A stretch of DNA of 64,000 nt from a bacterium (lineage in GTDB: Bacteria; Zhuqueibacterota; Zhuqueibacteria; Residuimicrobiales; Krinioviventaceae): assembly GCA_963693055.1 (NCBI GenBank), contig OY843751.1, positions 3,296,001 through 3,360,000 of the forward strand, read 5' to 3'. The translations under genes were made by a program, and so were the position numbers. The notes beneath the pieces are model-generated. The model worked only from the letters and a program-made list of their open reading frames with translations. It made no database searches and was not told where the DNA came from. Positions 17,927-36,449 of the stretch are shown piece after piece. Numbering within the stretch: the stretch's first letter is position 1; the number at the start of each line of letters is the position of its first letter.

Positions 17927-19666
17927 TTATGCTGCGTTTTCTTTATAGATGCTTTTTTTATCATAATGTGTATGAAGCAGTTCATGTGCTTTGTGACCAT
18001 TAGGTTCACCCAGCCATTCTTCATACAATTTCATAACAGCAGGATTCTCATGAGATTTACGGATCTCCATTTTACGGTCTTGCAGATAAATAGCTTCAGC
18101 GCGTTTCTTGCGGATTTCTTCAGAAGTGGGGATCGGTTGACCACCACCACCAATACAACCACCGGGACAAGCCATAATTTCAATAAAATGATATTCAGCT
18201 TCACCGGCTGCAATTTTGTCTAACAATTTACGTGCATTTGCTAAACCGTTAGAAACAGCAGCTTTAACTTTTAAACCGTTCAGGTCTATTTCTGCTTCTT
18301 TAATACCTTCTAAACCTCGAACATCTTTGATCTCTACATCATCAAGTGTCTTTTCGGTAACAATTTCATAAACGGTACGTAATGCAGCTTCCATTACACC
18401 ACCGGTATTACCAAAAATAACAGCAGCACCTGTAGAGATACCCAATGGATCATCGTACTCTTCTTCATGCAGATCAGGTAAATTGATACCAACCTGTTTC
18501 ATCATTACAGCTGCTTCACGTGTGGTCAATACAGCGTCCACATCCTGAAAACCGCTGTCATTCATTTCCGGACGTCCACATTCATATTTCTTGGCAGTAC
18601 AAGGCATGATGGATACACAATAAATATCTTTAGGATCAATGCCATTCTTTTCAGCATAATATGTTTTTGCCAAAGCGCCAAACATCTGCTGTGGAGATTT
18701 ACATGAAGATACATGCGGCAACAAATCAGGATAAAAATGTTCAATAAAATTTATCCAGCCGGGGCTACATGAAGTTAACAATGGCAAAGTGCCGCCATTC
18801 TTTACACGACCCAACAGCTCTGTACCTTCTTCCATAATGGTTAAATCTGCGGTAAAGTCTGTATCAAAAACTTTATCGAATCCCAACATTCTCAAACCAG
18901 TAACAAACTGATTGGTAACCAGAGAACCGGCAGGCATACCAAACATTTCGCCAATTGACGCGCGAACTGCGGGTGCAGTTTGAACAACAACATGTTTTGT
19001 AGGATCATCCAAAGCTGCCCAAACGCGTGCTGTATGATCATTTTCATACAATGCACCAACAGGACAACGATCGATACATTGACCACAGGAAACACAGGCA
19101 ACATCGCCAATGCCTTTACCAAATGGAGTATCAACCCAAACTTCGTATCCACGGCCTTCAAGACCAATTGCGCTAACACTCTGTACCAGTTCACAAGTCT
19201 GGATACAACGGCGGCACAAGATACATTTGGAAGGATCACGAACGATAGCCGCACTGGAAAGGTCCAGTTCACCCTTACGTTCATGATATTCAAAACGATT
19301 TTCACGCAAACCCAATTGTTCTGCGGCATCCTGCAATTCACAGAAATTATTGCGAACACATTCAGTACATTTCATGGGATGACGAGACAATAACAATTCG
19401 AGTGCCATTTTGCGAGAGTCGCGAACTGATTGGGTGCGTGTTGAAACATTCATCCCCTCCTTACATTGCCATGAGCAAGCAGTGCGTAACAAACGATCAC
19501 CTTCAACCTCTACAACACATAAACGACATGCAGATACCGGCGGTAAATCTGGATGATAGCATAAACGGGGGATTTTGATATTTAATTTTTCTGCTGCTTC
19601 TAGAACAGTCGTACCCTTGGGTACTGTTACTGTTTTACCATCTATTGTTAATGTGATATTTTCCAC
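17927..19666 (-). CDS. hydA: [FeFe]-hydrogenase group A catalytic subunit (HndD/HydA type), copy 1
   Basis: H-cluster motifs TSCSPGW, MPCTAKKYE, EIMACPGGCIGGGGQP; N-terminal 2Fe-2S, His-ligated 4Fe-4S (HPMKCTEC) and 2x4Fe-4S. Confidence 0.96.
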   Translation of the reverse strand: MENITLTIDGKTVTVPKGTTVLEAAEKLNIKIPRLCYHPDLPPVSACRLCVVEVEGDRLLRTACSWQCKEGMNVSTRTQSVRDSRKMALELLLSRHPMKCTECVRNNFCELQDAAEQLGLRENRFEYHERKGELDLSSAAIVRDPSKCILCRRCIQTCELVQSVSAIGLEGRGYEVWVDTPFGKGIGDVACVSCGQCIDRCPVGALYENDHTARVWAALDDPTKHVVVQTAPAVRASIGEMFGMPAGSLVTNQFVTGLRMLGFDKVFDTDFTADLTIMEEGTELLGRVKNGGTLPLLTSCSPGWINFIEHFYPDLLPHVSSCKSPQQMFGALAKTYYAEKNGIDPKDIYCVSIMPCTAKKYECGRPEMNDSGFQDVDAVLTTREAAVMMKQVGINLPDLHEEEYDDPLGISTGAAVIFGNTGGVMEAALRTVYEIVTEKTLDDVEIKDVRGLEGIKEAEIDLNGLKVKAAVSNGLANARKLLDKIAAGEAEYHFIEIMACPGGCIGGGGQPIPTSEEIRKKRAEAIYLQDRKMEIRKSHENPAVMKLYEEWLGEPNGHKAHELLHTHYDKKSIYKENAA

Positions 19667-19718
19667 ATTTAACCTCCATTGTGCGTATTATAACGTTAAA
19701 CTCAACATACATTATTTG

Positions 19719-21308
19719 TTAAGCCACAGCTTCCGGTTGTTTTACCAATTTTTCGAATTCAGGGCGGAAATGTTTCAGCGTTCCCAGAATAGGTACAGGA
19801 GCAGCCTGACCTAATCCACAGAACGCACCCTTCATCATGACTACTGCAAGTTCTTCAATCATATCGATGTCTTTGATCTCGCCTTTACCACTGCTCAATT
19901 TTTCAAGACGCTCCAATAAACGGCCTGTTCCTTCACGGCAAAGTGTACATTTACCACAAGATTCATGATTAAAGAATTCTACAAAATTGGTTACCAGATC
20001 AACAATTTCCTGATCTTCATCAACAACCAGTAAAGCACCTGAACCCAAACCTGAGCCAATTTCGCGCAAGTTTTCAACTGCCAATGGCAGGTCCAGATGT
20101 TCGGAGGTTAAAATACCACCAGTAGTTCCACCCATTTGGGCGAGTTTAAAGCCTTTACCATTGGGAATGCCCTGACCGATATCATAAATAATTTCTCGCA
20201 GGGTAATGCCCATGGGAACTTCAATAAGGCCGGGATTATTAATATTGCCAACCATGGTAAATACCTTAGTGCCCGGGCTTTTTTCGGTGCCCAGTGACTT
20301 GTACCACTCGGCGCCTTTTAAAACAATCTGAGGAATATTAGCAAGTGTTTCCACGTTATTTACGATTGTCGGTTTTCCCCACAGACCTTCGGAAGGTGGA
20401 AACGGTGGTTTATCACGTGGTTCTCCGCGTTTTCCTTCAATGGATTCTATCAATGCGGTCTCCTCACCACAGATATAAGCGCCGGCCCCTTCACGAATTT
20501 CAAGATCAAATGAAAAATCTGTACCAAACAGATTATCACCCAGTAATCCGTTTTCTTTAGCCTGATCGATAGCGCGCTGCATCCGATCGATGGACATGCG
20601 GTATTCACCACGAATATAAACATAACCTTTGGTTGCACCCACTGCAAAACCTGCAAGTGCCATTCCCTCAATAACTGCATGTGGATCGCCTTCAAGGATC
20701 AGACGGTCTTTAAATGTACCCGGCTCACCTTCGTCAGCATTACATACAATGTATTTTTGCTCAGCGGTTTCTTTGGCAGCAAAATCCCATTTCAAGCCAG
20801 TTGGGAAAAATGCACCACCACGTCCCTGCAGGCCGGATTCTTTAACGGTACTGCGTACAGCATCGGGGTCCATTTCGGTTAATGCTTTACCAAATGCTTC
20901 ATATCCGTCATGAGCAATGTATTCATCAATGTTATCAGGATCAATAACACCGGCATTTTTCAATACTACCCGTATTTGTTTTCCAAAACGAGGTGCAGGT
21001 ACACCTGCGGTCTCTGTTTCAGGAATATCAGTATATTGTAAACGATCAACTTTACGACCTTTGATCAGGTGTTCAGAGATGATTTCAGAAACATCTTCAA
21101 CCTTGACACCGGCATAATATACCGCGTCAGGGAAAACAACCATAACAACACCTTTATTATAAATTCCCAAACTACCAGTTTCAACAACACGGACTTCATC
21201 GGCAAGCGCTGCCATTTTCAGTTCGCGCTCCAATGCGTCTTTGACAGAACGGGCGCCCTGGGCAATTGTATGTCCATCCATTGCAATAAGTATGTGAATC
21301 CTATGCAT
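19719..21308 (-). CDS. hydB: NuoF-like flavin subunit (HndC/HydB), short form
   Basis: GRGGAFFPTG, CNADEGEPGTFKDR, GAGAYICGEET, ESCGKCTLCREG...CGLG. No C-terminal ferredoxin domain; N-terminal Trx-like domain has no Cys. Confidence 0.92.
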   Translation of the reverse strand: MHRIHILIAMDGHTIAQGARSVKDALERELKMAALADEVRVVETGSLGIYNKGVVMVVFPDAVYYAGVKVEDVSEIISEHLIKGRKVDRLQYTDIPETETAGVPAPRFGKQIRVVLKNAGVIDPDNIDEYIAHDGYEAFGKALTEMDPDAVRSTVKESGLQGRGGAFFPTGLKWDFAAKETAEQKYIVCNADEGEPGTFKDRLILEGDPHAVIEGMALAGFAVGATKGYVYIRGEYRMSIDRMQRAIDQAKENGLLGDNLFGTDFSFDLEIREGAGAYICGEETALIESIEGKRGEPRDKPPFPPSEGLWGKPTIVNNVETLANIPQIVLKGAEWYKSLGTEKSPGTKVFTMVGNINNPGLIEVPMGITLREIIYDIGQGIPNGKGFKLAQMGGTTGGILTSEHLDLPLAVENLREIGSGLGSGALLVVDEDQEIVDLVTNFVEFFNHESCGKCTLCREGTGRLLERLEKLSSGKGEIKDIDMIEELAVVMMKGAFCGLGQAAPVPILGTLKHFRPEFEKLVKQPEAVA

Positions 21309-21783
21309 TTGCCTGTCCTTTCATTTTATAGTCTTTTAATATTGCCACTGCTTTTTCCGGAGTAAGATTACCATAAACCTCATCATTGATCATCATAACC
21401 GGTGCAACCGCACAAAGTCCCAAACAGCTTGTAAATTCCAGAGTAAAAAGATTATCGGGAGTGGTTTCATTCATATCAAGACCCAGATATTCTTTAATTT
21501 TTTCCAGAACATCTTTGGAACCTTTAACATGGCAGGGTGCATTGTTGCAGCAACGTACAATATATTTACCTTTATCTTCTGTATTGAACAGACTATAAAA
21601 AGTAGCTACACCATAAATATCTGAAAGTGGTAATTTGGTAGCTTTTGCAACTTGAGTAAGTACGGGTTCAGAGAGGGAACCATACTCTTTTTGAACATCT
21701 TTTAAAATATAAATAAGTGGTGTTTTTGTGTCAGCATAATTTTTGACAATAACATCCACCTTGGTTAAATCTTGCATTCTCAA
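21301..21783 (-). CDS. hydC: NuoE-like 2Fe-2S subunit (HndA/HydC), copy 1
   Basis: YGVATFYSLF, CNNAPCHVKG, CLGLCAVAP. ATG 21777 fits the GGAGG RBS better. Confidence 0.92.
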   Translation of the reverse strand: MRMQDLTKVDVIVKNYADTKTPLIYILKDVQKEYGSLSEPVLTQVAKATKLPLSDIYGVATFYSLFNTEDKGKYIVRCCNNAPCHVKGSKDVLEKIKEYLGLDMNETTPDNLFTLEFTSCLGLCAVAPVMMINDEVYGNLTPEKAVAILKDYKMKGQANA

Positions 21784-21820
21784 CCTCCATAGATTGATTT
21801 TCCAGCGTTGCGGGTATCGT

Positions 21821-22183
21821 CTAGTTTAAATTAAATACATATTCCGAAACTACAGTATTGTTCACAATATGTTCTGCAATAATTTTACGAGCTATTTCAG
21901 CATTTACTTTACCATATGTAACGGTAGGTTTGTCTGCCTGAGCAATCTGCAGCATGGGTTCATTATCACAGTAACCCAAACAACCTGTTTGTGTAACAAC
22001 AGCGTCTTTGATACCACGCTTTTCAATTTCATCTAAAATCGCTGACATTGTGTCACGTGAACCTGCGGCGATTCCGCATGTTCCCATGGAAACAATAATG
22101 CGATATTTTGCATCGCTTTCCCGTGCAGCCATCTGAGATTTTGCCTTCTCCTTGATAGCACGGAGATCTGCTAATGTTTTCAC
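21821..22183 (-). CDS. HndB-like thioredoxin-fold 2Fe-2S subunit
   Basis: MGTCGIAAG...TGCLGYCDNEP; GTG start after GGAGG. Confidence 0.88.
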   Translation of the reverse strand: MKTLADLRAIKEKAKSQMAARESDAKYRIIVSMGTCGIAAGSRDTMSAILDEIEKRGIKDAVVTQTGCLGYCDNEPMLQIAQADKPTVTYGKVNAEIARKIIAEHIVNNTVVSEYVFNLN

Positions 22184-22220
22184 TGCTTTACCTCCTGTTT
22201 GTTTTGTTTATGTTAAATAC

Positions 22221-22345
22221 GAATTAATTCTCATTCTTTTCCCGTTTCGTGTGAATTAATCCAGTTTACTTTCCCGAACAGTGTAACATTTTACTTTTTT
22301 TTTAGAATTGATTCTCTTTCTTTTCCCTAAAAATTGAATCAATTC
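22221..22345. promoter_or_regulatory. Duplicated operator-like array (four GAATYRATYC boxes)
   Basis: Boxes at 22221, 22253, 22305 and 22336; direct repeat GAATTAATTCTCATTCTTTTCCC / GAATTGATTCTCTTTCTTTTCCC. Confidence 0.55.
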
Positions 22346-22421
22346 CCTTTTATCTTACAGTGTTTATATTCATTTGTTCACTTTTTTTTACCATCTCCCT
22401 TACTATTTATTATTTACATTA

Positions 22422-22985
22422 TTAATCTAATAAAACTTTACTTTTCACTTGAATACGTTTCAATTCAGATTTGATATGTTTTTTTGCCGGAACAACCATA
22501 TCAAAAAAATCACAATCCTGTTCTGCCATTCTTGCCAAAAGCCAGTATGAATCAAAACATAAAAGTCCCTTGTCCGTACGATGAAGGTAGCAAAAATGCA
22601 CATCAACCGCACCCATTACCAGGTTTACAACTGTACCGGCAATATCTCCCAAAGGTGCCAGGTTTAAGCTATTGAGTTTGAAATCAGCGGTAACAGTTGT
22701 GCCTTTACCCAATTTCGATTTCAAAACCATGCGCCCACCGGCTTCATTTGCTGCCTGGTTCCAGAATGGTAATCCCATTCCTACTGAACGTGTGGTTCTT
22801 GAGGTAACAAAGGGATCAATAACTCTGGCCTGAGTAACGTCATCCATACCTCTGCCATTATCACGTATTGTAACCGCGAGCCTGTTTTGTTTTTGAGATT
22901 CATCAATAAACAAAATCACGCGTGAAGCCTCTGCTTCAATGGAATTTGTAACAATATCCAAAATATTTAATGATAATTCACGCAT
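22422..22985 (-). CDS. Stand-alone HATPase_c (kinase-like) protein of [FeFe]-hydrogenase clusters
   Basis: MRELSLNILDIVTNSIEA, IRDNGRGM, DPFVTSRTTRSVGMGLP, GKGTTV. Confidence 0.85.
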   Translation of the reverse strand: MRELSLNILDIVTNSIEAEASRVILFIDESQKQNRLAVTIRDNGRGMDDVTQARVIDPFVTSRTTRSVGMGLPFWNQAANEAGGRMVLKSKLGKGTTVTADFKLNSLNLAPLGDIAGTVVNLVMGAVDVHFCYLHRTDKGLLCFDSYWLLARMAEQDCDFFDMVVPAKKHIKSELKRIQVKSKVLLD

Positions 22986-23747
22986 CTAGCTCATCTCCTC
23001 CGGGAGTTCAAGAGAGGTTTTACGTCCATCTTGCTTTTTGAGTGCTTTACGGATCTCTTCAAAATCCGGTTTTTCGATATAAAACCAGGTATATTTTGAA
23101 CCCAACATACTTATATCGTGGGCATCAGAAGCTGTAATGATACTTTTGGTAGTATTGAGTAAAAAACGATGATTTTTTGAAACATTCTCAAATGGTTGTG
23201 CAATTTCAAGCGCATCGAAAGGCAAGTTGTCGGGAATGAATCCCAAAGAGCGTAACAAACTGTATGATTTCCTATCAATATGCGCAGGATAAATGATACC
23301 ATTCAAATCTACAACCGTACTGGCAACTTTGTAAATATTCAGGCTTACCGGCAGAGCAAACATACGTTTACTTTCCTCAATAATATTTTCCTGAAAATCG
23401 CAAACATATTGTGGACCAAACATGGATGCATCATATTCACCAGGCATCAAATGTTCATATATATAGTTTTGGAAATGCCCGGCAGCATCCAGGTCTGGAA
23501 ATAAACATATAGAGTGCGCATCTTCACGTGTATAGACTTCCATACCAGGAATGACAAAGAGTTTTTTATTTTCAGCGGCCTTAACAACAGCCTGTGTATT
23601 TTCTGCAGAGTTGTGATCCGTAATTGCCAGGATATCCAGTTCATGTTGCAGGGCTGTTTTAACAATATCAACTGGCCCCATTGTCAATTCAGCACAAGGC
23701 GAAAGGACCGTATGAACATGCAAATCCGCTTTGTACCATTGCAGCAT
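22986..23747 (-). CDS. PHP-domain phosphoesterase
   Basis: DLHVHTVLSPC, AITDHNS, PGMEV, PAHIDR, SDAH. Confidence 0.9.
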   Translation of the reverse strand: MLQWYKADLHVHTVLSPCAELTMGPVDIVKTALQHELDILAITDHNSAENTQAVVKAAENKKLFVIPGMEVYTREDAHSICLFPDLDAAGHFQNYIYEHLMPGEYDASMFGPQYVCDFQENIIEESKRMFALPVSLNIYKVASTVVDLNGIIYPAHIDRKSYSLLRSLGFIPDNLPFDALEIAQPFENVSKNHRFLLNTTKSIITASDAHDISMLGSKYTWFYIEKPDFEEIRKALKKQDGRKTSLELPEEMS

Positions 23748-23751
23748 TCAC

Positions 23752-24093
23752 CTATCTCCCCCGTAAACCAAAATCGTAAAGTTGGCCTGCGACATCAAAG
23801 GCAGACAGGGTTGTGCTGAAAACAGGTATATTTTTTTCATTGGCTTTTTCAAGGGCTGAATCGTCAGGAACCAATCCTTCGGGAAAGATAACTCCGGCAA
23901 GAGACTTGAAAAATACAATGGCAATAACGTTTTCATGTGTTTGATTGGTGATCCACAATGACCCTTTTAATGCATTGGCCATTGCATCACTAAGGATATC
24001 AGACAAGTAACCAAAATCTACTTCTTTGTTCAGATTTTGTTCACCGCTGAGAACTTTTAAATCTAACTTTTTTACAATCTCTTGCAACACCAT
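23752..24093 (-). CDS. DRTGG/HPr-kinase-N-like domain protein
   Basis: GYLSDILSDAM...LWITNQTHENVIA...ANEKNIPV; this family is typically found next to the PHP gene in hydrogenase loci. Confidence 0.78.
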   Translation of the reverse strand: MVLQEIVKKLDLKVLSGEQNLNKEVDFGYLSDILSDAMANALKGSLWITNQTHENVIAIVFFKSLAGVIFPEGLVPDDSALEKANEKNIPVFSTTLSAFDVAGQLYDFGLRGR

Positions 24094-24135
24094 GGGATCT
24101 CCCTTCCTCCAAAAAATTCGAACCCATATTATGAA

Positions 24136-25614
24136 TTATTCCATTTTTGAAGCCGGCAGGAACACTGAAAAAGTTGTTCCTTTTTCATACTCGCTTTCAA
24201 TTTCGATCTTGCCGGCATATGCATCTACAATTTTTTTAACAATTGTTAGACCCAATCCGGTACCGGTTATTTCTCGGGTGTGTTCATTCTTGGCCCTGAA
24301 AAAATCTTCAAACAAGCGTTCTTTATCTTCAGGACGCATCCCTATTCCGGTATCGGTAACATCAATTCGAATATAATGACCGTTACGACTGCCGTTTATG
24401 GTTATGGAACCGTTATCACGATTGTATTGAATTGCATTGGATATGACTTGAGTAAATAAACGTTGAAGATCTATCTGGTCAGCATCTACAAACAAATGTT
24501 CAGTAACGCTAATACGAACTTCTAGATTGTGTTCCTTGATGTCATTTTTCATGAAATTGAGTCGTTCTGACAATAGCTCTGAAATATCCTGTCTGTTTAT
24601 TTCGCGTCTTACCTTGCCAGCTTCCAGACGGGTGACATTTAGCAAATCATTGATCAGATTGACAAGTGACTTTGTACGATCTAATGATCTCTTTAAATAA
24701 TTCTCATACAAGTCCGGATCATCGCCCAGAGTCTTGTCTACAACCAGCTCAAGATAGCCTTGTACAGCAGACAATGGTGATTTTAATTCATGTGCAGCCA
24801 TATCTACAAATTGAGAGCGCATGATATCAATTTTTTTCAATTCTGAAATATCACGCAAGACAGACACAACGCCCAACAATTCACCCTTGTCTATGATAGG
24901 TGTTGTATTGGCCATTATCACCAGTTTTGCCGGCGGATGTATAATGATCTCTTGCTGTATCGCTTTAACCTGTTCTTTTTTGCTAAAAATCTCTCGCAGC
25001 TGTTTGTTCAACTCGTCTGGCAGAAACTGCCAAACTTTGTCACCAATTTCAATCTTGCTTTCAACGTTTAATAATTTTATAAACCCGGGATTAAAAAGTA
25101 CAACCTGCCCTTCCTGGTTAATAACCATAATACCATCATCCAAAGAATTGATAATGGTGCGCATGCGCGATTGCTCATGAGCAACCTGCAGCAATCTTCT
25201 TTCCTGCTCTTCACGTAATCTTCTGGCTTCTAAAATATACCAGCGACGTTCAAGAGCACGGTTTACCAGGATTTGCAGTTCATCTGGTTCAAAAGGTTTG
25301 GGTATATACTGGTAGGCACCCAGTCGTGTGGTTTCCACAGCAGTTTCAATAGATGCATATGCAGTAACAATCACACAAATGGCTTCGGGATATACCAGCT
25401 TGATCTCACGTAATACCTGCGTGCCCTCCACATCCGGCATACGTAAATCAATAAAGTACAGATCATACTCGTTGGCAATACCCTTTTCAATACCTTCTGT
25501 ACCGTTTGAGGCCGTATCTACATTATGACCGTACAACTCGAGGATGCGTCTAATGCCTTCACGCATCCCCAATTCATCATCTACGACCAGTATTTTACCT
25601 TGTTCAATCCTCAA
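24136..25614 (-). CDS. Cytoplasmic REC-PAS-histidine kinase
   Basis: ILVVDDE...IDLRMP...KP receiver, PAS (LDDGIMVIN), AHELKSPL H-box, DTGIG, GTGLGL. Confidence 0.9.
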   Translation of the reverse strand: MRIEQGKILVVDDELGMREGIRRILELYGHNVDTASNGTEGIEKGIANEYDLYFIDLRMPDVEGTQVLREIKLVYPEAICVIVTAYASIETAVETTRLGAYQYIPKPFEPDELQILVNRALERRWYILEARRLREEQERRLLQVAHEQSRMRTIINSLDDGIMVINQEGQVVLFNPGFIKLLNVESKIEIGDKVWQFLPDELNKQLREIFSKKEQVKAIQQEIIIHPPAKLVIMANTTPIIDKGELLGVVSVLRDISELKKIDIMRSQFVDMAAHELKSPLSAVQGYLELVVDKTLGDDPDLYENYLKRSLDRTKSLVNLINDLLNVTRLEAGKVRREINRQDISELLSERLNFMKNDIKEHNLEVRISVTEHLFVDADQIDLQRLFTQVISNAIQYNRDNGSITINGSRNGHYIRIDVTDTGIGMRPEDKERLFEDFFRAKNEHTREITGTGLGLTIVKKIVDAYAGKIEIESEYEKGTTFSVFLPASKME

Positions 25615-26008
25615 GTTCTTTAAATATCTTTTCGCTTAAATATTGTACCAAATCTCTGGGAGAAATGGGTTTTTCCAAATAATCATCTGCCTTGATCCAG
25701 TTTTTTTCTTCATCTGTATCGGTAGAAAAACGGATACCGGTATCGTGACCGGCTGAAGTCATGATGATTACACGAACGTTTTCAGTATTGGGCTGTTGTT
25801 TGATTCTGTGGCAAAGTACAAAACCAGAATCAAAATGCTCCATTGCAAGGTCAACAACAACAACAGGCGGATTAAATGCTTTGAATTTTTCCAAACCTTC
25901 CACACTGTCATATGCAGTTTCTACAGTATAGCCTTCTTTTTCTAAAACGGGTTTATAAATATTGATCAAATCTGTATCGTCATCAACCATTAAAATCTTT
26001 TTATCCAT
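25604..26008 (-). CDS. Single-domain response regulator
   Basis: ILMVDDD, VVVDLAME, LEKP. Confidence 0.88.
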   Translation of the reverse strand: MDKKILMVDDDTDLINIYKPVLEKEGYTVETAYDSVEGLEKFKAFNPPVVVVDLAMEHFDSGFVLCHRIKQQPNTENVRVIIMTSAGHDTGIRFSTDTDEEKNWIKADDYLEKPISPRDLVQYLSEKIFKELED

Positions 26009-26022
26009 GCGAACATTTTCCT

Positions 26023-26415
26023 TTAATTCTTGGTTTTCAACATTTCAATTACTTTATCATACAACTGTGTATGTGTAACGGGTTTTTCCATAAAGTCATC
26101 TACCGGGTTCCAATTATCATCCGGGCCAATGGTGAGATTAAAATTGTGTTCCTGATTGACACTGGTCATCATCAGGATCAATGTATCGTTAATAGCATCA
26201 TCTTTACGAATCTCACGGGCAACTTCAAAGCCTTCACCCACTTCGGTCATCATGACATCGAGTATTACCAAATCCGGTTTTTCGGATCTAACCAGTTTCA
26301 GTCCATCTGAACCGTTATAGGCCTTGCATACATGAAAACCCTTTGATGTAAAAAAGGCACGGTTCATTTCGACTAGATCAACATCATCATCAATTATTAA
26401 TAATTTATAACTCAT
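26023..26415 (-). CDS. Single-domain response regulator
   Basis: LLIIDDD, ILDVMM, MEKP. Confidence 0.88.
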   Translation of the reverse strand: MSYKLLIIDDDVDLVEMNRAFFTSKGFHVCKAYNGSDGLKLVRSEKPDLVILDVMMTEVGEGFEVAREIRKDDAINDTLILMMTSVNQEHNFNLTIGPDDNWNPVDDFMEKPVTHTQLYDKVIEMLKTKN

Positions 26416-26429
26416 CTTTCCTCTAGAGT

Positions 26430-28442: not shown

Positions 28443-28443
28443 A

Positions 28444-30156
28444 TTATTCTACATCTCTTCTCACATAGTGTGTATGCAAGAGCTCATGGGCCTTATGACT
28501 GTTGGGCTCGCCAAGGAACTCTTTATACAATTTCTGAACTGATTCATTCTGATGTGAACAACGCATGGGCAGTTCTTTATCGATCTTGTAAATAGCCTGC
28601 ATACGCTTTTCAGTTTTTTCAGGATCAGAAGGCAATGGCTGACCACCACCATTAATACAACCACCGGGGCATGCCATAACTTCAATAAAGTGATATGGAG
28701 AAGTTCCTTCCTGCATCTGGTCCAGGAAATGGTTTATGTTTTTCAATCCGTTAATAGCGGCAACTTTAAGTTCAATATCATTAATCGTTACAACAGCTTC
28801 TTTAACACCACTCAAGCCACGGATTGGACGAAAATCGATATCATCCATTTCTTTACCCGTAAGTGTAAAATATGCTGTACGCAAAGCGGCTTCCATAACA
28901 CCACCGGCACTACCAAAAATAACCGCAGCACCCGTTGATTCACCCAATGGATCATCAAAGTGTTCTTCTGCCAGGCGGGTAAAATCAATACCTGCGTTTT
29001 TGATCATTCTTGCAAGTTCGCGTGTGGTAACTACTGCATCAACATCCGGGTATTTATCACCCAGTTCAGGACGTTGAGCTTCAAATTTCTTTGCAGTACA
29101 TGGCATTACAGATACTACAAATATATCTTTGGGATCAATACCCATCTTTTGCGCATAAAAAGATTTTACAAGCGCTCCCTGCATTTCATGTGGTGATTTA
29201 CAGGTTGAGAGATTGCCCAACAGATCGGGATAAAAATGTTCAATATATTTAATCCAACCCGGACTACAAGAAGTAATCATGGGAACAGTACCATTATTGG
29301 TTAAACGACCCAACAATTCAGTTGCTTCTTCCATAATGGTAAGATCAGCACTAAAGTTGGTGTCAAAAACAGTGTCAAAGCCCATTGCGCGAAGTGCTGA
29401 AACCATTTGACCTGTAACAATAGTGCCAACCGGCATCCCAAATTCTTCACCCAGTGCAACACGTACAGCCGGTGCAACTTGAACAACAACATGTTTTTCT
29501 TTATTATTAATGGCATCCCAAACAACTTTTTCCTGGCTCTTTTCTTTCAAAGCACCAACTGGACAGTTAACAATACACTGACCACAGTAAACACAAGGAA
29601 CTGTGTTCAAACTGTTATCAAATGCAGGGGTAACATAAGTCTGGAAACCACGGTTTGCAAAATCAATTGCGCCTACATTTTGTACTTCATGACAAACACG
29701 GATACAGCGACCGCAGAGAATACATTTATCGGGATCACGTTCCATTGATGGACTTGCAACATCCTGTTTGTTTGAACGTTTTTCACCTTCATAGCGCAGG
29801 CTGCGAACACCATATTCCGCAGCAAGGGTCTGTAATTCACAATTTCCATTGCGAACACATTGCAAACAATCAGCCGGGTGGTTGGCAATCAACAACTCGA
29901 TGATGGTTTTTCTTGCACGTCTTACCTTGGGTGAATTGGTTTGCACCTTCATTCCGTCAGCTACCGGAAATGCACAGGAAGGTACAAGATTGCGCTGTCC
30001 TTCTACTTCAACAACACATATACGGCATGAACCGGTTGGGCTAAATCCTTTCAGGTAACACAATGTTGGTATTTTAATACCTTCACGGTCAGCTACGGTA
30101 AGGATCGTTTCACCCGGATTGGCCCAGCACTCTTTATCATTTATTATAATTCGCAT
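28444..30156 (-). CDS. hydA: [FeFe]-hydrogenase group A catalytic subunit, copy 2
   Basis: TSCSPGW, MPCTAKKFE, EVMACPGGCINGGGQP and a full accessory cluster set. Confidence 0.96.
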   Translation of the reverse strand: MRIIINDKECWANPGETILTVADREGIKIPTLCYLKGFSPTGSCRICVVEVEGQRNLVPSCAFPVADGMKVQTNSPKVRRARKTIIELLIANHPADCLQCVRNGNCELQTLAAEYGVRSLRYEGEKRSNKQDVASPSMERDPDKCILCGRCIRVCHEVQNVGAIDFANRGFQTYVTPAFDNSLNTVPCVYCGQCIVNCPVGALKEKSQEKVVWDAINNKEKHVVVQVAPAVRVALGEEFGMPVGTIVTGQMVSALRAMGFDTVFDTNFSADLTIMEEATELLGRLTNNGTVPMITSCSPGWIKYIEHFYPDLLGNLSTCKSPHEMQGALVKSFYAQKMGIDPKDIFVVSVMPCTAKKFEAQRPELGDKYPDVDAVVTTRELARMIKNAGIDFTRLAEEHFDDPLGESTGAAVIFGSAGGVMEAALRTAYFTLTGKEMDDIDFRPIRGLSGVKEAVVTINDIELKVAAINGLKNINHFLDQMQEGTSPYHFIEVMACPGGCINGGGQPLPSDPEKTEKRMQAIYKIDKELPMRCSHQNESVQKLYKEFLGEPNSHKAHELLHTHYVRRDVE

Positions 30157-30171
30157 ATCTTCCTCAGTTTA

Positions 30172-32181
30172 TTATTCCACATAAATGGCATCAAATTTAC
30201 AATTGGCTCTACACTGATCACAGCGTATACATTTATCATCAATAATGTAATGTGCTTTTTTACGTTCGCCCAGAATAGCATTTTCAGGACATTTTCTAGC
30301 ACAAACTGTACAACCGGTACATTTATCTGTATCAATCTTATATGTCAACAGGTCTCTACAAACACCAGCGCGGCATTTACGATCGTACAAGTGTTCTTCG
30401 TATTCTTCACGGAAATAACGTATTGTGCTCAATACGGGGTTCGCGGCAGTTTGTCCCAATCCACACAACGAAGTATTAATGATCACTTCTGACAGACGTT
30501 CAAGGTATACCATACCCTGGAAACGCAGCAGTGAATCTTCGGCAGATTTTTCAGCACGATGGCTTGATGACAAACGTTCCAGAATTTCCAACAACCGCTT
30601 TGTACCCTCACGACAAGGAATACATTTACCACATGATTCAGACTGGATAAAGGTCATAAAGTATTTGGCCAAATCAACCATACAGGTTGTTTCATCCATT
30701 ACCACCAGACCACCGGAACCCATCATGGCGCCAATGCTTTTGAGTGATTCATAATCTACAGGAGTATCGATAACTGAATCCGGTAATGCACCACCAGAAG
30801 GACCACCAATCTGTACAGCCTTGAATTCTTTACCATCAGGAATACCACCACCAATATCAAAAACGATTTCACGCAGTGTAACACCCATGGGAACTTCAAC
30901 CAGACCTACATTTTTCACTTTACCGGAAAGAGCAAAGATCTTGGTACCTTTAGAATTTTCTGTACCAATCTTTGAATACCAGTCTGCACCATTACGCAAG
31001 AGTACCGGTACATTTGCAAAAGTTTCAACGTTATTAATAATGGTTGGTTTACCAAACAATCCTGCATCTGAAGGATATGGTGGTTTAGGACGCGGCATTC
31101 CGCGTTTACCTTCAATTGAATTCAACAATGCGGTTTCTTCACCACAAACAAATGCGCCCGCACCTTTTTTAATTTTCAGGTTAAAGCTAAATCCTGTTCC
31201 CAGAATATTCTCACCCAACAGGCCATAGGCTTTAGCGTCTTTGATCGTTTTTTCAAGTCTAGCAATTGCAAGTGGATATTCAGCACGGCAGTAAACATAA
31301 CCTTCATCTGCACCAATAGCAAAAGCGGCAATAGCCATACCTTCTACCATCAAATGAGGATCACCTTCCATTACCGCACGATCCATAAATGCACCAGGAT
31401 CGCCTTCATCTGCATTACAAACAACATATTTTTTATCGCCTTTTGACTGGGCAGCCAGTTTCCACTTTAAACCTGTTGGAAAACCACCGCCGCCACGACC
31501 ACGAAGTCCGCCGTCTAAAACTTCTTTAACCACTTTTTCGGAATCCATTTGGGTCAAAGCTTTGGTCAAAGCCTGGTAACCACCATTTGAAATATATTGA
31601 TCAATACTTTCCGGATCAATTACACCACAATTGGCTAAAACTACTTTTTTCTGTTTCTTAAAGAATGGAATATCTTCCATTTTATCAACACTTGACCAAT
31701 CACCTGCATGACCATTTTTATCATATACACCCAGTGTTTTTCCTACAATCACTTGTTTATTAATAATGGTCTGTTCCACAATTTCAGGAACATCCTCAAC
31801 TGTAACTTCACAATAACTGATTCTCGGATAATTGGGTAATTTAATATCAACAATAACTTCACGTGCGCAATATCCAACACAACCAGTAGAGATCAGCTTT
31901 GCATTAATATTTTTTTCATTCAATAATGTTTTAAAAGCATCATATATTTTTTGTGCACCATTTGCTAAACCACAGGTACCCATACCCAGCAGGATAACAG
32001 GTTCCTCGTGATTTTCTAAAAGAATTTCATCTTTTAAACTTTTAACTGCCTGCAATTCAGCATCCGAATGGCCATTACTATTGCCATTGGTGCTCAGGCA
32101 TTCTATTAATGATTTCACCGGAAAGTCCTGATCTTTCCATAAATTGGTGAAAAGGTTTTTATATGTATTCATATCAGCCAC
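30172..32181 (-). CDS. hydB: NuoF-like flavin subunit (HydB), full-length bifurcating type
   Basis: N-terminal GMGTCG...GCVGYC domain, DEGDPGAFMDR, GGPSGG, EYEEH...C...C, C-terminal CTGCTVC and CIRCDQC. Probable GTG start 32181 after GAGG (track start 32217). Confidence 0.93.
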   Translation of the reverse strand: MADMNTYKNLFTNLWKDQDFPVKSLIECLSTNGNSNGHSDAELQAVKSLKDEILLENHEEPVILLGMGTCGLANGAQKIYDAFKTLLNEKNINAKLISTGCVGYCAREVIVDIKLPNYPRISYCEVTVEDVPEIVEQTIINKQVIVGKTLGVYDKNGHAGDWSSVDKMEDIPFFKKQKKVVLANCGVIDPESIDQYISNGGYQALTKALTQMDSEKVVKEVLDGGLRGRGGGGFPTGLKWKLAAQSKGDKKYVVCNADEGDPGAFMDRAVMEGDPHLMVEGMAIAAFAIGADEGYVYCRAEYPLAIARLEKTIKDAKAYGLLGENILGTGFSFNLKIKKGAGAFVCGEETALLNSIEGKRGMPRPKPPYPSDAGLFGKPTIINNVETFANVPVLLRNGADWYSKIGTENSKGTKIFALSGKVKNVGLVEVPMGVTLREIVFDIGGGIPDGKEFKAVQIGGPSGGALPDSVIDTPVDYESLKSIGAMMGSGGLVVMDETTCMVDLAKYFMTFIQSESCGKCIPCREGTKRLLEILERLSSSHRAEKSAEDSLLRFQGMVYLERLSEVIINTSLCGLGQTAANPVLSTIRYFREEYEEHLYDRKCRAGVCRDLLTYKIDTDKCTGCTVCARKCPENAILGERKKAHYIIDDKCIRCDQCRANCKFDAIYVE

Positions 32182-32194
32182 AATATCCTCTTTT

Positions 32195-32647
32195 TTATTT
32201 TTGCCGGTATTCTGCAATTAATTTTTGTATTTTTTTAACGGTCAAATGACCATAATATTCATCATTGATTGATATTACCGGGGCTATACTGCATGCGCCA
32301 ATACAAGCAACGGTTTCGATTGAAAATTGTAAATCTTTGGTTGTATCACCAGCTGAAATTTCAAGTTCATTTTCTAATGTTTGTAAAATATCCAAAGAAC
32401 CTTTCACATGACATGCTGTACCACGACAAACGCGAATAATATATTTGCCCAAAGGTTTCAGGCGAAATTGATTATAAAATGTAGCCACACCATAAATCCG
32501 GCTGACAGGCAGCTTGGTATGAGTTGCTACTTTATTCATCTCTTCTTCAGACAAGTATCCCTGAACTTCCTGAATATCCTGTAAAATAGGAATCAGGACT
32601 GATGGATCACCCGGAGGATACTTTTCAAAAATCTGTTGCGTCTCCAT
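32195..32647 (-). CDS. hydC: NuoE-like 2Fe-2S subunit (HydC), copy 2
   Basis: YGVATFYNQF, CRGTACHVKG, CIGACSIAP. Confidence 0.93.
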   Translation of the reverse strand: METQQIFEKYPPGDPSVLIPILQDIQEVQGYLSEEEMNKVATHTKLPVSRIYGVATFYNQFRLKPLGKYIIRVCRGTACHVKGSLDILQTLENELEISAGDTTKDLQFSIETVACIGACSIAPVISINDEYYGHLTVKKIQKLIAEYRQK

Positions 32648-32673
32648 TAAAAAACCTCTCCATTAGTGTGTTT

Positions 32674-34143
32674 TTATTTAATATTTTCTTCTATTACCGG
32701 CAAGACAACTGTAAAAGTGGAACCGTTGACCAGGTCACTGTCTATTTCAATATACCCATTATGGTCTTCAATAATACGTTTGGCAATTGAAAGGCCCAGG
32801 CCTGTACCGGAAATACGTTGAGACACTGCATTCTTGGCACGGTAAAACTCGTCAAAGATCTTGTGTTTATCTTCTTCAGACATGCCAATACCAGTGTCTT
32901 TAACAATAACATTGATTTTATTTTTTTCTACTGTTACCTGTACATGAACACTCTTGTGCTCGGGTGTATATTTTATTGCATTACTAACCAGATTATCAAA
33001 AACTCTGCCCATATCTTCTTCGTTACCACGTATCGCGGGCAATTGATCAGGAATATCGCAAGCAAAGTTTATATCTTTGGCCTTTGCTTCGTTTTTATAA
33101 AACTCACAAGTACCACGAAGCACTGAAGAGATATCAAGAGCAGACATGACCTTTGCTGTTACTTTTTTCTCGGCACGGGTCAGATCCAAAAGATCGTTTA
33201 CCATGGCCAACAGTTCATTTGCCCGATCTCGAGACTTTGTAATATAATCTTTTTCTTTTTCAGGATTCCCTGTGATAACGCCTTCCAAAATCAAATTCAA
33301 ATAACCTTCAATAGCGCCTAAAGGTGCCTTGAGTTCATGAGCAACAAGACTGAGAAAATCTGTTTTCATCTGGTCAATCTTTTTCTCTTCAGAGACATCA
33401 ATTAAAACCGTCACGGTTCCAATCAATGCGCCATTTTCATCAATTACAGGAGTAATATTAGGCTGAAGGACCCTGCCATTACCCAGGTTTACTTCAAATT
33501 TTTCAAGAATTTCACAAGAAGTAACTTTGCTCAATGCATTTGCAATTTTCTTTTCAAGATCAGGATTACTCAACAATCCCAATACATTTTTGCCAAACAC
33601 ATCTCCATCCTTTAAGCGCAGCATTTTAAGAGCCGCAGGATTTATGAGCAAGATCTGCCCTTCTTTATTGGTAGCAATTACACCTTCACTCATGCAATTG
33701 ATAATGGTGTTGGTGCGTGTTTTCTCAATGATATGTTCTGCACGCAGCTTTTCCGCTTCTAACAAAAGTCTGCGTTTTTCGAGCGCGCGTTCAATTTTGG
33801 CTCTGAATTCATCGGGAGTAAAAGGTTTGGCCAAATAATCGTAAGCACCTTTTTTTACAGCATCTACCGCGTTTTCGATGGTTGCATAGCCTGTAATAAC
33901 AATAGGAACAATCTTTTCATCGATCTTGCGAATTTCTTCAAGAAACTGCATACCATCCATACGGGGCATCATCAGGTCAGTGACAACAAGATCATAGTTG
34001 TTGTTGCGGATTTTTTCAAGTCCTTCCATTCCATCTTCAGCAAGGTCAACCTCGTATTTGGAAAGTTCAAGAATCCGTTCGCAACCAATGCGGCTTACTT
34101 CGTCATCATCAACAACAAGAACTTTAATGTTTTCAAGGGTCAT
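32674..34143 (-). CDS. Cytoplasmic REC-PAS-histidine kinase (paralogue of 24136-25614)
   Basis: VLVVDDD...TDLMMP...KP, PAS (MSEGVIATN), AHELKAPL, SNAIKY, GTGLGL. Confidence 0.9.
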   Translation of the reverse strand: MTLENIKVLVVDDDEVSRIGCERILELSKYEVDLAEDGMEGLEKIRNNNYDLVVTDLMMPRMDGMQFLEEIRKIDEKIVPIVITGYATIENAVDAVKKGAYDYLAKPFTPDEFRAKIERALEKRRLLLEAEKLRAEHIIEKTRTNTIINCMSEGVIATNKEGQILLINPAALKMLRLKDGDVFGKNVLGLLSNPDLEKKIANALSKVTSCEILEKFEVNLGNGRVLQPNITPVIDENGALIGTVTVLIDVSEEKKIDQMKTDFLSLVAHELKAPLGAIEGYLNLILEGVITGNPEKEKDYITKSRDRANELLAMVNDLLDLTRAEKKVTAKVMSALDISSVLRGTCEFYKNEAKAKDINFACDIPDQLPAIRGNEEDMGRVFDNLVSNAIKYTPEHKSVHVQVTVEKNKINVIVKDTGIGMSEEDKHKIFDEFYRAKNAVSQRISGTGLGLSIAKRIIEDHNGYIEIDSDLVNGSTFTVVLPVIEENIK

Positions 34144-34538
34144 GCTTGATCCTGACTTAATAATTTCTCAACCCGTTCAATCAATTCAGATGGTTTGAGC
34201 GGTTTAGCTGCAAAATCATCAACTTTCATCCATTCTTTGTCATTTGAAAGTTGAAAGGTAAAGCCTGTTTTTTCCTGGGCAGAAGAAAGCATTAAAATGG
34301 GCATATGCTTCATATTCTCATCTTCCCTTACTGCATATGCAACAGTAAACCCGGCGTCACGTTCTTCCATCATCAAGTCCAGGACCAGCAGGTCATACTG
34401 GTTTTCACGGAGTTTCTTCAATGCATCAGATGACGTATATGCTTCTTCAACCGTATACCCTTTTGATTCCAGAATCGTTTTGTTGATCTCGATAAAATCC
34501 GGATCATCATCTGCCAGTAAAATTTTAATATCTTTCAT
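34140..34538 (-). CDS. Single-domain response regulator
   Basis: ILLADDD, LDLMME, AAKP. Probable start ATG 34538. Confidence 0.88.
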   Translation of the reverse strand: MKDIKILLADDDPDFIEINKTILESKGYTVEEAYTSSDALKKLRENQYDLLVLDLMMEERDAGFTVAYAVREDENMKHMPILMLSSAQEKTGFTFQLSNDKEWMKVDDFAAKPLKPSELIERVEKLLSQDQA

Positions 34539-34572
34539 ATTCTCTCCTGTTTTCAAGAAAACAGACTATTAT

Positions 34573-34944
34573 TTAAATACGGTTTACATCCAGCGCTGAC
34601 TGAATGGCCGTTGTTAAATCATTTATACCAAAAGAGTTCAAATGGTAATAGAAAACTTGTTCTTTACGGATAGCTGTTTCCAGATCTCTGGAATTGGAAC
34701 GAGATTGAACAATAATCCGTGATGCTGGCGAACTCCCTTTTAAAATGCGGAGTGTTTGATTTATTTGAATATCTTCCAATCCCGCATCTATGATAATTAC
34801 ATCAAAATGGTGTTCTTGAGCCTGTTGAATACCTGCAAACGGATCATTAACGATCTTGTAGTTTACTTTTTTAGATTCCAGAAAAAGTTCAAGATCGCGG
34901 TTAGCTTCGTTTACAGATGTTGATATTAACAGACAATTCATCAC
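34573..34944 (-). CDS. Atypical (pseudo)receiver-domain protein
   Basis: Receiver-like pattern (FDVIIID...RIIVQS...VFYY) without the acidic DD pair or the conserved Lys-Pro. Confidence 0.65.
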   Translation of the reverse strand: MMNCLLISTSVNEANRDLELFLESKKVNYKIVNDPFAGIQQAQEHHFDVIIIDAGLEDIQINQTLRILKGSSPASRIIVQSRSNSRDLETAIRKEQVFYYHLNSFGINDLTTAIQSALDVNRI

Positions 34945-34978
34945 AATACCAATAATTAATATTATTCATCTGTTTACT

Positions 34979-34994
34979 ATCAATTTGCGTGCCA
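34979..34994 (-). promoter_or_regulatory. Putative sigma54 -24/-12 promoter
   Basis: TGGCACGCAAATTGAT versus consensus TGGCACG-N4-TTGCW (GA instead of GC at -12), 35 bp upstream of the first gene of the island. Confidence 0.7.
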
Positions 34995-35110
34995 CAGATT
35001 CAAGTCAAAAACCGCAACCACAAACATAACACAAGTCATTTAAAAACAGTAAATTAACAACACTAGCGCAGTAATGTAATAAATGGATTATATCATTTAT
35101 GAGAGAGTTA

Positions 35111-35131
35111 AGTGTGGAATTTCTCCACACT
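35111..35131. promoter_or_regulatory. Putative enhancer (UAS) palindrome for the adjacent sigma54 activator
   Basis: AGTGTGGA-ATTTC-TCCACACT, about 120 bp upstream of the -24 element; no T-tract. Confidence 0.55.
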
Positions 35132-36449
35132 ACAAATCGTACTTGCGGATCTTGTCGTAAAGGGTTTTTCGATCAATTTGAAGGGCTTTGGCACTCTTAC
35201 TAATGTTTCCCTGAAACTTTTCAAGAATGTTATGGATGTGTCTCTTTTCCATATCAGCGAGTGATATAGCATCTGTTTCAGACAAGGTTGTAGAGTGAAT
35301 ATGAGCAGGCAAACTGGATTCATGAATAACCAGAGATTCTTCAATTACAATTGCACGTTCTATAACATTTTCCAGCTCTCGTATATTACCAGGCCAATGG
35401 TACCCCATTAACGCATTTAACGCATTGTCAGAAACAGATTGTATATCATTTCCCCGCCGTTTATGATTATGCTTTTGGATAAAATGCTCTATTAACAATG
35501 GTATATCGTCTTTACGTTCACGTAAAGGTGGTAAATGAATAGGAATAACACTAATTCTGTAATACAAATCTTCTCGAAACGTGCCCTTATCAACAGAATC
35601 TTTAAGATCACGGTTGGTAGCAGCAATAATACGCACATCCACTTTGATGGATTGGGTATCTCCTACCCTACGGATCTCTTTTTCCTGTATTGCTCGCAAA
35701 ATCTTGGCCTGCACATTTAAAGAAATATTGCCAATCTCATCAAAAAAGAAAGTTCCCTTGTTTGCAAGCTCAAATGCGCCATGCTTTGTAGTATGCGCAC
35801 CCGTAAAGGATCCTTTAGCATGCCCAAACAACTCGCTCTCAAAAAGTGATTCCACAAGTGAACCGCAATCCATTGCGAAAAAGGGTTTATTTGTGCGCAA
35901 ACTGGCAGCATGTATAGCCCGGGCTATCATCTCTTTTCCTGTACCACTCTCACCCAATACCAGAACTGTGCTTTCAGTGGGTGCAATTTTATCGATCATT
36001 TCAAATATGTGACGCATTTGCTGCGAATGGCCAATAATTCGCATCGGTTTTCCATCAAAATCAAACTCATAATACCCATTTTGGTCAGATTTACGGCTTT
36101 CCATGATTTGATGAACCAGCTCCAACGCCTGATCTGGCTGAAAAGGCTTGGACAAATAATCAAAGGCACCAATACGTCCTGCCTCTACAGCAGTCTCCAG
36201 AGAAGCATGCCCCGTAATAATAATGACTTCAAGTGCAGGATTATCTTTTTTCAATTCCTTAAGCAGCTCTATACCGTTCATGCCCGGTAGTTGATAATCT
36301 ACAAACGCAACATCATAATTCTTTTTATGAATCTGCTCTAAAGCGTTTGTTGCATTTTCACAAACATCAACACTCAAACCCTTGTCTTTAAAGTAAAGAG
36401 CAAAAGCATCACGAAACGAGAGATTGTCATCAATTAGCAAAATATTCAA
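35130..36449 (-). CDS. Sigma54-dependent NtrC-family response regulator (REC-AAA+-Fis HTH)
   Basis: GESGTGKE, ESELFGHAKGSFTGA, FFDEIG, FREDLYYR, WPGNIRELEN, C-terminal HTH. Confidence 0.93.
   Translation of the reverse strand: MNILLIDDNLSFRDAFALYFKDKGLSVDVCENATNALEQIHKKNYDVAFVDYQLPGMNGIELLKELKKDNPALEVIIITGHASLETAVEAGRIGAFDYLSKPFQPDQALELVHQIMESRKSDQNGYYEFDFDGKPMRIIGHSQQMRHIFEMIDKIAPTESTVLVLGESGTGKEMIARAIHAASLRTNKPFFAMDCGSLVESLFESELFGHAKGSFTGAHTTKHGAFELANKGTFFFDEIGNISLNVQAKILRAIQEKEIRRVGDTQSIKVDVRIIAATNRDLKDSVDKGTFREDLYYRISVIPIHLPPLRERKDDIPLLIEHFIQKHNHKRRGNDIQSVSDNALNALMGYHWPGNIRELENVIERAIVIEESLVIHESSLPAHIHSTTLSETDAISLADMEKRHIHNILEKFQGNISKSAKALQIDRKTLYDKIRKYDL

Follow-up and report, generated by a model that had tools for sequence, protein, structure and literature searches.

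A sigma54-headed gene block with two predicted types of [FeFe]-hydrogenase and a hydrogenase-like sensor kinase in a bacterial genome without recognised maturases

The window analysed here, a 64,000-nt stretch of contig OY843751.1, carries on the minus strand at 17927-36449 a block of hydrogenase and signal-transduction genes. We consider the two enzyme types that this block is predicted to encode, its likely control, and the maturation genes that its host appears to do without. The host genome is a single closed contig of 6.5 Mb, with completeness rated 100%. A reading made from the sequence alone had described a co-oriented block with three H-cluster proteins, three histidine kinases and seven receivers, all of it cytoplasmic and closed by a terminator, and this description was borne out. 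All 18 minus-strand genes stand in the order it gave, and they encode three Fe_hyd_lg_C proteins, three kinases of the HisKA+HATPase type whose His boxes are intact, and a total of seven receiver domains, six of which hold the acidic pocket, the phospho-Asp and the Lys; the pseudo-receiver retains the Asp only. No convincing membrane segment was found in the products of the block (the top 19-residue hydropathy was 1.85, in the DRTGG protein), and a terminator-like hairpin lies at 17922-17895. Alignments place the likely starts of hydB1 (32172), REC1 (34538) and hydC2 (21777) at other positions than those of the longest open reading frames. The features, from the head of the block to its end, are:

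35130-36449, minus: sigma54-dependent activator, REC-AAA-HTH with a GSFTGA loop; RpoN is encoded in the genome
35112-35130, no strand: enhancer site 1, palindrome GTGTGGAGAAATTCCACAC, the best genome-wide matrix match
35089-35106, no strand: enhancer site 2, a second palindrome
34979-34995, minus: sigma54-type -24/-12 promoter, TGGCAC..TTGAT, the top-ranking site of its kind on the block's minus strand
34573-34944, minus: pseudo-receiver, the promoter-proximal gene
34140-34538, minus: REC1, stand-alone receiver with a Trp-bearing insertion
32674-34143, minus: HK1, REC-PAS-HisKA-HATPase; PhoR/WalK-like kinase with an NtrC-like input receiver
32195-32647, minus: HydC1
30172-32172, minus: HydB1, bifurcating type (A/M, F, GGPSG, B2 His motif, two C-terminal 4Fe-4S motifs)
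28444-30156, minus: HydA1, group A3 catalytic subunit with intact P1/P2/P3
26430-28442, minus: sensor, 2x4Fe-4S, H-domain, Cx2Cx4Cx16C and NtrB-like histidine kinase, no PAS
26023-26415, minus: REC2, insert-type receiver
25604-26008, minus: REC3, insert-type receiver
24136-25614, minus: HK3, REC-PAS-HisKA-HATPase, 39% identity to HK1
23752-24093, minus: DRTGG protein
22986-23747, minus: PHP phosphoesterase-like protein
22422-22985, minus: stand-alone HATPase_c without HisKA
22184-22421, no strand: intergenic gap, long in this genus only; no scanned motif matched
21821-22183, minus: HydD/HndB-like thioredoxin-fold protein with 3 Cys
21301-21777, minus: HydC2
19719-21308, minus: HydB2, non-bifurcating type (T/K, Y, GGTTG; no B2-B5 ligand motifs)
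17927-19666, minus: HydA2, catalytic subunit of group A3, P1/P2/P3 intact; no gene of the block is better conserved
17895-17922, minus: intrinsic-terminator-like hairpin

Published criteria for HydB support the claim that two enzyme types lie side by side. Beta subunits of bifurcating and NADH-only enzymes can be told apart by three sequence sites and by their Fe-S content, as reported by Losey et al. (PMC7311640; this and the other papers given by PMC number are cited from excerpts, and statements on them extend to those excerpts). Bifurcating subunits display A/E232 and M234, F367, GGPSG, the B2 His/Cys motif and the C-terminal B3 and B4 4Fe-4S motifs; NADH-only subunits display T/S232, K/S/A234 and Y367, and lack GGPSG and B2-B5. 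HydB1 carries GAFMD, GAGAFVCGE and GGPSG together with the B2 His motif EHLYDRKCRAGVC and two ferredoxin motifs (B3, B4), consistent with the bifurcating type. HydB2 carries the NADH-only signatures GTFKD, GAGAYICGE and GGTTG, has no ferredoxin motif, and its N-terminal domain is Cys-less. Both retain the Glu of CGEETAL, which is linked to NADH preference. The same split was seen throughout 40 loci picked by sensor or hydB2 matches, many of which end at contig ends (23/23 full-length hydB1 rows and 31/31 hydB2 rows). HydB1 has a HydD-like N-terminal domain with three Cys, which leaves its B5 2Fe-2S cluster uncertain; the extra N-terminal Cys of relatives are mostly gone in this genus. The P1, P2 and P3 H-cluster motifs are intact in HydA1 and HydA2, HydA1 and the solved enzyme 7Q4V have TSCSPGW in common, and hydA2 is the best-conserved gene of the block, with a mean of 82%. 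One bifurcating and one NADH-only [FeFe]-hydrogenase are thus predicted in the block. The NADH-only enzyme of S. aciditrophicus reached 2.2-40.2 Pa H2 at NADH/NAD+ ratios of 1-5 (PMC7311640), and because of this range HydABC2 would tend to return H2 to NADH at higher pressures.

Both enzymes are likely raised together from one promoter. Two palindromes, followed about 100 bases on by a TGGC-N-TTG promoter, precede the pseudo-receiver in all 15 loci of our first set. An enhancer matrix trained on 14 loci of other genera, all 14 of them among these 15, ranks the window's site first genome-wide (score 29.2, next 20.8), and six untrained loci of the order score 15.0-25.1, a level of 15 being reached by only 0.07% of random windows. 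A second palindrome adjoins the window's site and no other top site has one, so that the host genome has the pair a single time. The elements of a sigma54 operon, namely a -24/-12 motif, an upstream enhancer, a GAFTGA-like loop and RpoN, are all present as sequence matches, the -12 element being GA and not GC. The "operator-rich" gap before hydD that the sequence-only reading described did not hold up: it measures 238 bp here, 234 bp in a congener and 33-144 bp (median 75.5) in 26 other loci, and a scan of it returned no enhancer, sigma54 or Rex match. Every other spacer from the pseudo-receiver to hydA2 is 52 bp or less, and sigma70-like sites occur in the block at chance level (65 against 57.4 +/- 7.9). 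Rex control of the block was considered and rejected, no box with three or fewer mismatches being found in the promoter regions. Moreover, in a relative without the bifurcating enzyme and the relay (L113), the genes run activator, enhancer, pseudo-receiver, Mur-ligase-like gene, DRTGG, PHP, hydD, hydC2, hydB2 and hydA2, and L104, from another taxonomic order, is similar. The short spacers, the short gap elsewhere, the conserved head promoter and the deletions in L113 and L104 argue for a single transcript, and the block is likely one operon.

The claim of a cytoplasmic relay with a group C-type sensor is supported by domain content. The sensor shows the features given for group C sensory hydrogenases in PMC8163306, that is, N-terminal 2x4Fe-4S, an H-domain without C299 and two Met, and Cx2Cx4Cx16C. 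Its H-domain motifs are TSSCP, GPCTAKK and LFCEGC; a PAS domain of the M2f/TmHydS type gave no match in it, and the kinase follows directly. At least 35 of 40 rows keep the P2 Cys and Lys; two of these rows are apparently unrelated kinases recruited via the kinase part. The HydDB subgroup label for such H-domain-kinase fusions (C1 or C3) differs between two papers, and our literature search found no report of H2-dependent kinase activity in kinase-linked group C hydrogenases. In a class comparison within the host genome, in which the OmpR examples are only four, the sensor kinase scored 124 bits against kinases adjacent to sigma54 activators and 75 against those adjacent to OmpR regulators; HK1 and HK3 showed the reverse (112-118 bits OmpR-adjacent, 73-75 sigma54-adjacent). 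The receivers of the activator, HK1 and HK3 are NtrC-like, and REC1-3 are nearer to OmpR receivers. An activator orthologue adjoins the sensor in L131, and one gene lies between them in L129. This class-level similarity, which is not a cognate assignment, suggests a wiring in two tiers, from the sensor to the activator and the hybrid kinases, and from the hybrid kinases to the stand-alone receivers.

Related sensory arrangements occur elsewhere. A second H-domain-kinase fusion (L147:1742-3817 and downstream; 47% identity) is followed by an operon for a membrane-bound [NiFe] enzyme, and two Rex-like boxes lie in the interval. At L148:1230-6748, rex, an H-domain-PAS protein, a SpoIIE phosphatase and a group B-like hydrogenase stand in series, and L149:1391-3550 encodes an H-domain-MCP fusion. 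In one family, a receiver fused to a degenerate kinase-like domain is encoded upstream of the activator (L008, L011, L013, L015-L017, L091).

Gene order proved to be conserved across three families of one order, beyond what chance would give. Bifurcating gene(s), the sensor and hydB2 share one stretch in 19 of the 40 fetched loci, from these three families; a full-length sensor-kinase orthologue of at least 60% identity occurs in 28 of 41 relatives, and REC1 and HK1 are frequently lost. In our phylum sample of 133 genomes with at least 85% completeness, 38 have a hydB2 orthologue. The NADH-only unit stands alone in several relatives (L103, L104, L111-L113), and an HK1-like kinase abuts DRTGG in L103, L104, L111 and L112. 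Other orders have rex and Rex-like boxes at the head of the bifurcating unit (hydCBA, sensor, receiver, kinase); their NADH-only unit stands apart, headed by the same enhancer and pseudo-receiver, and in L131 it ends in a sensor and an activator orthologue. The simplest reading, with an order of events that we infer, is that a bifurcating unit was inserted into a sigma54-led NADH-only unit and that Rex control was lost. An either/or switch may fit those other orders, with their separate Rex-led and sigma54-led operons, better than it fits this window. Among the 80 genome-collection loci listed, three hold the sensor and hydB2 on one stretch, all from this lineage, and among the 80 metagenome loci listed none does; neither count shows absence.

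Beyond the window, the genome, as judged from its sequence, has none of the known machinery for assembling the H-cluster that H2 sensing requires. Genes for seven H-domain proteins are present, and the HydE, HydF and HydG of canonical maturation were not found: HydG and HydE gave no match at E 0.001, HydF gave generic GTPase matches only, and tblastn with the maturases of relatives found none, in agreement with the profile result; the positive controls gave matches in T. maritima and B. thetaiotaomicron. In the phylum sample, group A3 HydA exceeded the cut-off in at least 52/133 genomes (a lower bound; G063 was missed), and HydG was present in 10 of these 52 and lacking in 42. Incomplete assembly as the cause of the gap is rejected by the closed genome and by a control, the single-copy EcfT, which was detected in 126 of the 133 genomes. 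In a Bacillota-class sample of 61 genomes (completeness not reported), HydG was found in 14 of 46 HydA-positive genomes. We also rejected the DRTGG, PHP and HATPase proteins as replacement maturases, since the module is widespread in Clostridia and two maturase-positive relatives retain it. Hydrogenases without maturases are described from archaea and some eukaryotes, for which an alternative pathway has been proposed (Greening et al., PMC11216029).

Two candidate importers lie elsewhere in the genome. The sole tm1266 of the host (TIGR03959, 108.5 bits, cut-off 60.8) directly precedes a TonB receptor; in G004 and G070, tm1266 precedes hydG. The receptor was found in 30/36 HydF-negative and 1/5 HydF-positive relatives (Fisher p 0.009, overstated because kin are not independent). 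At L146:3378-6342 (G000:C1:2767877-2770841), an open reading frame that we take to be FeoA-like, a conserved leader hairpin, tm1266 and the TonB receptor stand in series. A similar hairpin lies before the tm1266 ribosome-binding site in both the receptor-linked and the hydG-linked setting (L142, L144) and is possibly a translational feedback site. At L144:6414-15723, in the sole relative with both maturases and receptor, tm1266-hydG-hydF-hydE are divergent from a kinase and a sigma54 activator. TM1266 was not found in the papers listed by our literature search (15 of 332).

The other candidate is a stand-alone ECF S-component (L145:2748-3284; G000:C1:890747-891283) whose occurrence follows that of [FeFe]-hydrogenases in two phyla; the genes for EcfT and two EcfA-like ATPases lie dispersed elsewhere in the host genome. 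The S-component fell into no NCBIfam family, a profile search of solved structures gave nothing meaningful, and the literature search found no link between an ECF S-component and [FeFe]-hydrogenase maturation. It occurs in 56 of the 133 phylum genomes, including 49/52 HydA-positive and 42/42 HydA-positive HydG-negative genomes, and in each of the three HydA-positive genomes that lack it, hydG adjoins hydA. Within the Bacillota sample its presence goes with that of hydA (12/13), five copies lying directly behind hydA. In other orders, a TonB receptor and an ECF S-component close the hydrogenase clusters, and three genomes that encode sensor-sized H-domain proteins without a group A3 HydA all have the receptor, two of them also the S-component.

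The explanation we favor, and hold with roughly even confidence, is that one sigma54 operon carries both enzymes together with the sensor and relay, in a maturase-less cell that likely imports its di-iron cofactor. The TonB receptor and the ECF S-component would bring in the 2Fe subcluster or a near-final precursor. Once the H-domain is loaded, the NtrB-like kinase would report H2 or redox state to NtrC-like receivers, namely the receiver of the activator and those at the input of HK1 and HK3. The activator would then drive the whole 17-kb transcript, sensor included, and HK1 and HK3 would pass phosphate to stand-alone receivers that may serve as sinks or protein-level modulators. The sensor would report cofactor supply and H2 jointly, and the activator would raise both enzymes at once. 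The choice of enzyme for the flux would then depend chiefly on H2 pressure and the NADH/NAD+ ratio: the NADH-only enzyme would evolve H2 only where H2 is very low, and would otherwise convert H2 to NADH. More tentatively, it could be hypothesized that the finished di-iron cofactor is scavenged from neighbours by way of the S-component and a TonB receptor controlled by tm1266, and that the hydrogenase-kinase fusion is a sensor of loading and of H2 that switches the operon on only after the cofactor has arrived.

This explanation should be viewed with some caution, since several observations weigh against it. One block (L020) lacks the pseudo-receiver, the enhancer and the sigma54 promoter, L012 and L018 lack an adjacent activator, L110 retains the enhancer and has no promoter match, and the longer gap of this genus could contain a promoter of its own. 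The genome holds about 15 other sigma54-activator receivers (15 counted in all), so that class similarity is no proof of a cognate pair. Neither importer is located in the hydrogenase block. The five HydF-positive relatives span three genera only, six HydF-negative relatives have no receptor, G004 carries maturases and receptor together, and G067 has both importers and no H-domain match. The S-component is present in 7/10 HydG-positive genomes of the phylum, and in the Bacillota sample in 7/32 HydA-positive HydG-negative and 5/14 HydG-positive genomes, and there it does not track maturase loss. Finally, the best scores of the receptor, below the cut-off, are to heme-type receptors, and a FeoA-like frame precedes it; import of iron or of another cofactor is possible for these reasons.

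Joint running of the two enzymes would pass reduced ferredoxin to NAD+ through H2 and bypass Rnf, which is encoded in the host genome, and this is the best argument for added protein-level control by the stand-alone receivers. In such a scheme both enzymes would be co-transcribed, and the insert-type receivers and the DRTGG-PHP-HATPase-HydD module would switch one of them off after translation. It would agree with the conserved core of sensor, REC2, REC3 and HK3, which has no DNA-binding output of its own, and with the insert-type receivers that flank hydC or follow hydB in other genomes. However, no fusion of an insert-type receiver to a hydrogenase subunit was found in the best 120 of 609 matches to longer proteins, where receiver tandems come top, with kinases and other signalling proteins, and the module also accompanies single bifurcating enzymes in Clostridia; we consider the scheme rather unlikely. 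A complex prediction of REC1 with HydB2 and HydC2 gave no answer (score 0.00), and the pseudo-receiver and an insert-type receiver are fused in other genomes. The sequence-only reading had instead proposed that an H2-driven phosphorelay selects between two separately transcribed operons, the second promoter lying before hydD. The 234-238 bp gap of this genus would leave room for one, other orders do have a rex-led bifurcating operon with Rex-like boxes and an enhancer-led NADH-only operon, and R. albus controls one of its two hydrogenases by H2 (PMC10838669). Yet the gap is conserved neither in length nor in sequence and gave no match to the enhancer, sigma54 or Rex motifs, the host genome has only one copy of the enhancer pair, and the deletion loci place the NADH-only genes behind the first promoter. 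Because a single conserved sigma54 promoter and enhancer is found, and no second conserved promoter or operator before hydD, a transcriptional either/or is not supported, and we give it little chance in this window.

The maturase gap itself allows two other explanations. The cell could make the 2Fe cofactor by a route independent of HydE, HydF and HydG, the tm1266-linked receptor and the S-component supplying only iron or another precursor. This accords with the alternative pathway proposed for maturase-less archaea and some eukaryotes (PMC11216029), with the resemblance of the receptor to heme-type receptors, and with the many HydG-negative genomes of the Bacillota sample that have no S-component. 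We nevertheless hold it to be unlikely, given that no HydE/HydG-family match was found even at E 0.001, that the receptor sits in the regulated slot held by hydG in maturase-bearing relatives, and that no recurrent candidate enzyme was seen among the neighbours without assignment. Alternatively, the H-domain proteins could be Fe-S wires or redox sensors without a 2Fe site, or silent, so that H2 is not sensed. The absence of maturases speaks for this, and a membrane-bound [NiFe] enzyme encoded elsewhere in the genome could handle H2. Against this, the 2Fe-site and proton-path residues, with P1, P2 and P3, are kept in 64 of 64 full-length HydA rows, and hydA2 is the best-conserved gene of the block; we regard this explanation as very improbable.

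Some neighbouring and variant arrangements are recorded here in their own right. A divergent stand-alone receiver at 36567-37017 of the window (plus strand) is kept in close relatives and is preceded by a perfect sigma70 consensus (12/12), and a butyrate-kinase-like gene (16736-17809, minus strand) follows hydA2 here and in several related loci. A Mur-ligase-like gene precedes DRTGG in two families (L113:4594-5739, L008, L009, L013, L014, L016, L017, L107, L108, L118). L031 and L023 have two hydC/hydB pairs, one per type, before a single hydA-like gene and then [NiFe]-subunit-like genes; the pairs are possibly exchangeable diaphorase modules. At L150:2627-6537, a fused NuoE-NuoF protein with bifurcating-type motifs adjoins a GltD-like partner without an H-domain, and at L052:5662-9049, hydG-hydE are flanked by insert-type receivers between two hydrogenase gene sets, each adjoining hydC.

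How [FeFe]-hydrogenases of archaea and some eukaryotes mature without HydE, HydF and HydG is an open question (PMC11216029). It becomes directly testable in this lineage, which combines a closed bacterial genome, relatives both with maturases and without them, and two named importer candidates, of which one occupies the regulated slot of hydG. The findings bear on what kinase-fused group C hydrogenases sense, and they counsel caution in inferring H2 production from hydA alone. With one promoter motif and both enzyme types, the block is also a well-defined case for studying how the cell avoids or exploits a ferredoxin-to-NAD+ short circuit. If the proposed scavenging is true, it would amount to cross-feeding of an organometallic cofactor that is read by a receptor kinase.

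The closest solved relatives of HydA1 are the bifurcating HydABC enzymes of PDB 7Q4V and 8A6T, presumably those of Acetobacterium woodii and Thermoanaerobacter kivui. HydB1 shares the B1-B4 motifs with bifurcating HydABC and the Bfu family (PMC9304861), and, unlike the A. woodii and T. kivui enzymes, has a HydD-like N-terminal domain with three Cys and an uncertain B5 cluster. The merged cluster, a tm1266-linked importer and such a maturase-less bacterial lineage were not described in the literature we searched, a scope from which supplements and most subscription papers fell outside; the excerpts of PMC5317091 and PMC11683472 contain no description of this block, and the gene-cluster supplements of PMC11406978, outside the search, could show similar ones. 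Parts of the system are already known, namely a kinase-bearing sensor behind hydCBA, the occurrence of both enzyme types within a single genome, and control of one of two enzymes by H2. Sub-type V BfuABC with the kinase-bearing BfuT, from Hydrogenedentota and Caldithrix abyssi (PMC11406978), resembles the block in having hydC-hydB-hydA followed by an H-domain-kinase fusion; in the excerpts of that paper, maturase terms occur only in the references. A comparable fusion is found in HydDB group C1, "histidine kinase-linked (putative)" (PMC5037454), and rex-led units of hydC-hydB-hydA with such a fusion occur in other orders of this phylum. Unlike BfuABC/BfuT, the block has no rex and lies inside a sigma54-led cluster with an NADH-only enzyme and two hybrid kinases.

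HydB2 is like the NADH-dependent enzymes of Syntrophus aciditrophicus and Syntrophomonas wolfei (PMC7311640) in its T/K and Y residues, in lacking GGPSG and in having fewer Fe-S motifs; it differs from them in its Cys-less N-terminal thioredoxin domain, in hydD and DRTGG-PHP-HATPase, and in the bifurcating enzyme of the same cluster. Ruminococcus albus, with HydABC, HydA2 and HydS (PMC10838669), likewise has a bifurcating and a non-bifurcating enzyme in one genome and a putative sensor, but its second enzyme is ferredoxin-only and on a separate transcript, and HydS is of the PAS type. Ignavibacterium album (PMC3362086) has two trimeric enzymes, both types in one genome, but in separate clusters and with hydEFG present. 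Archaea, Giardia and Entamoeba (PMC11216029) share with our host intact hydrogenases without HydE, HydF and HydG, including in a closed genome. The excerpts on those cases name no importer; here, in contrast, the lineage is bacterial, its relatives include genomes with and without maturases, and a candidate importer lies behind tm1266. The interest of the locus thus rests mainly on the maturase gap and the candidate importer, and less on the proposed switch.

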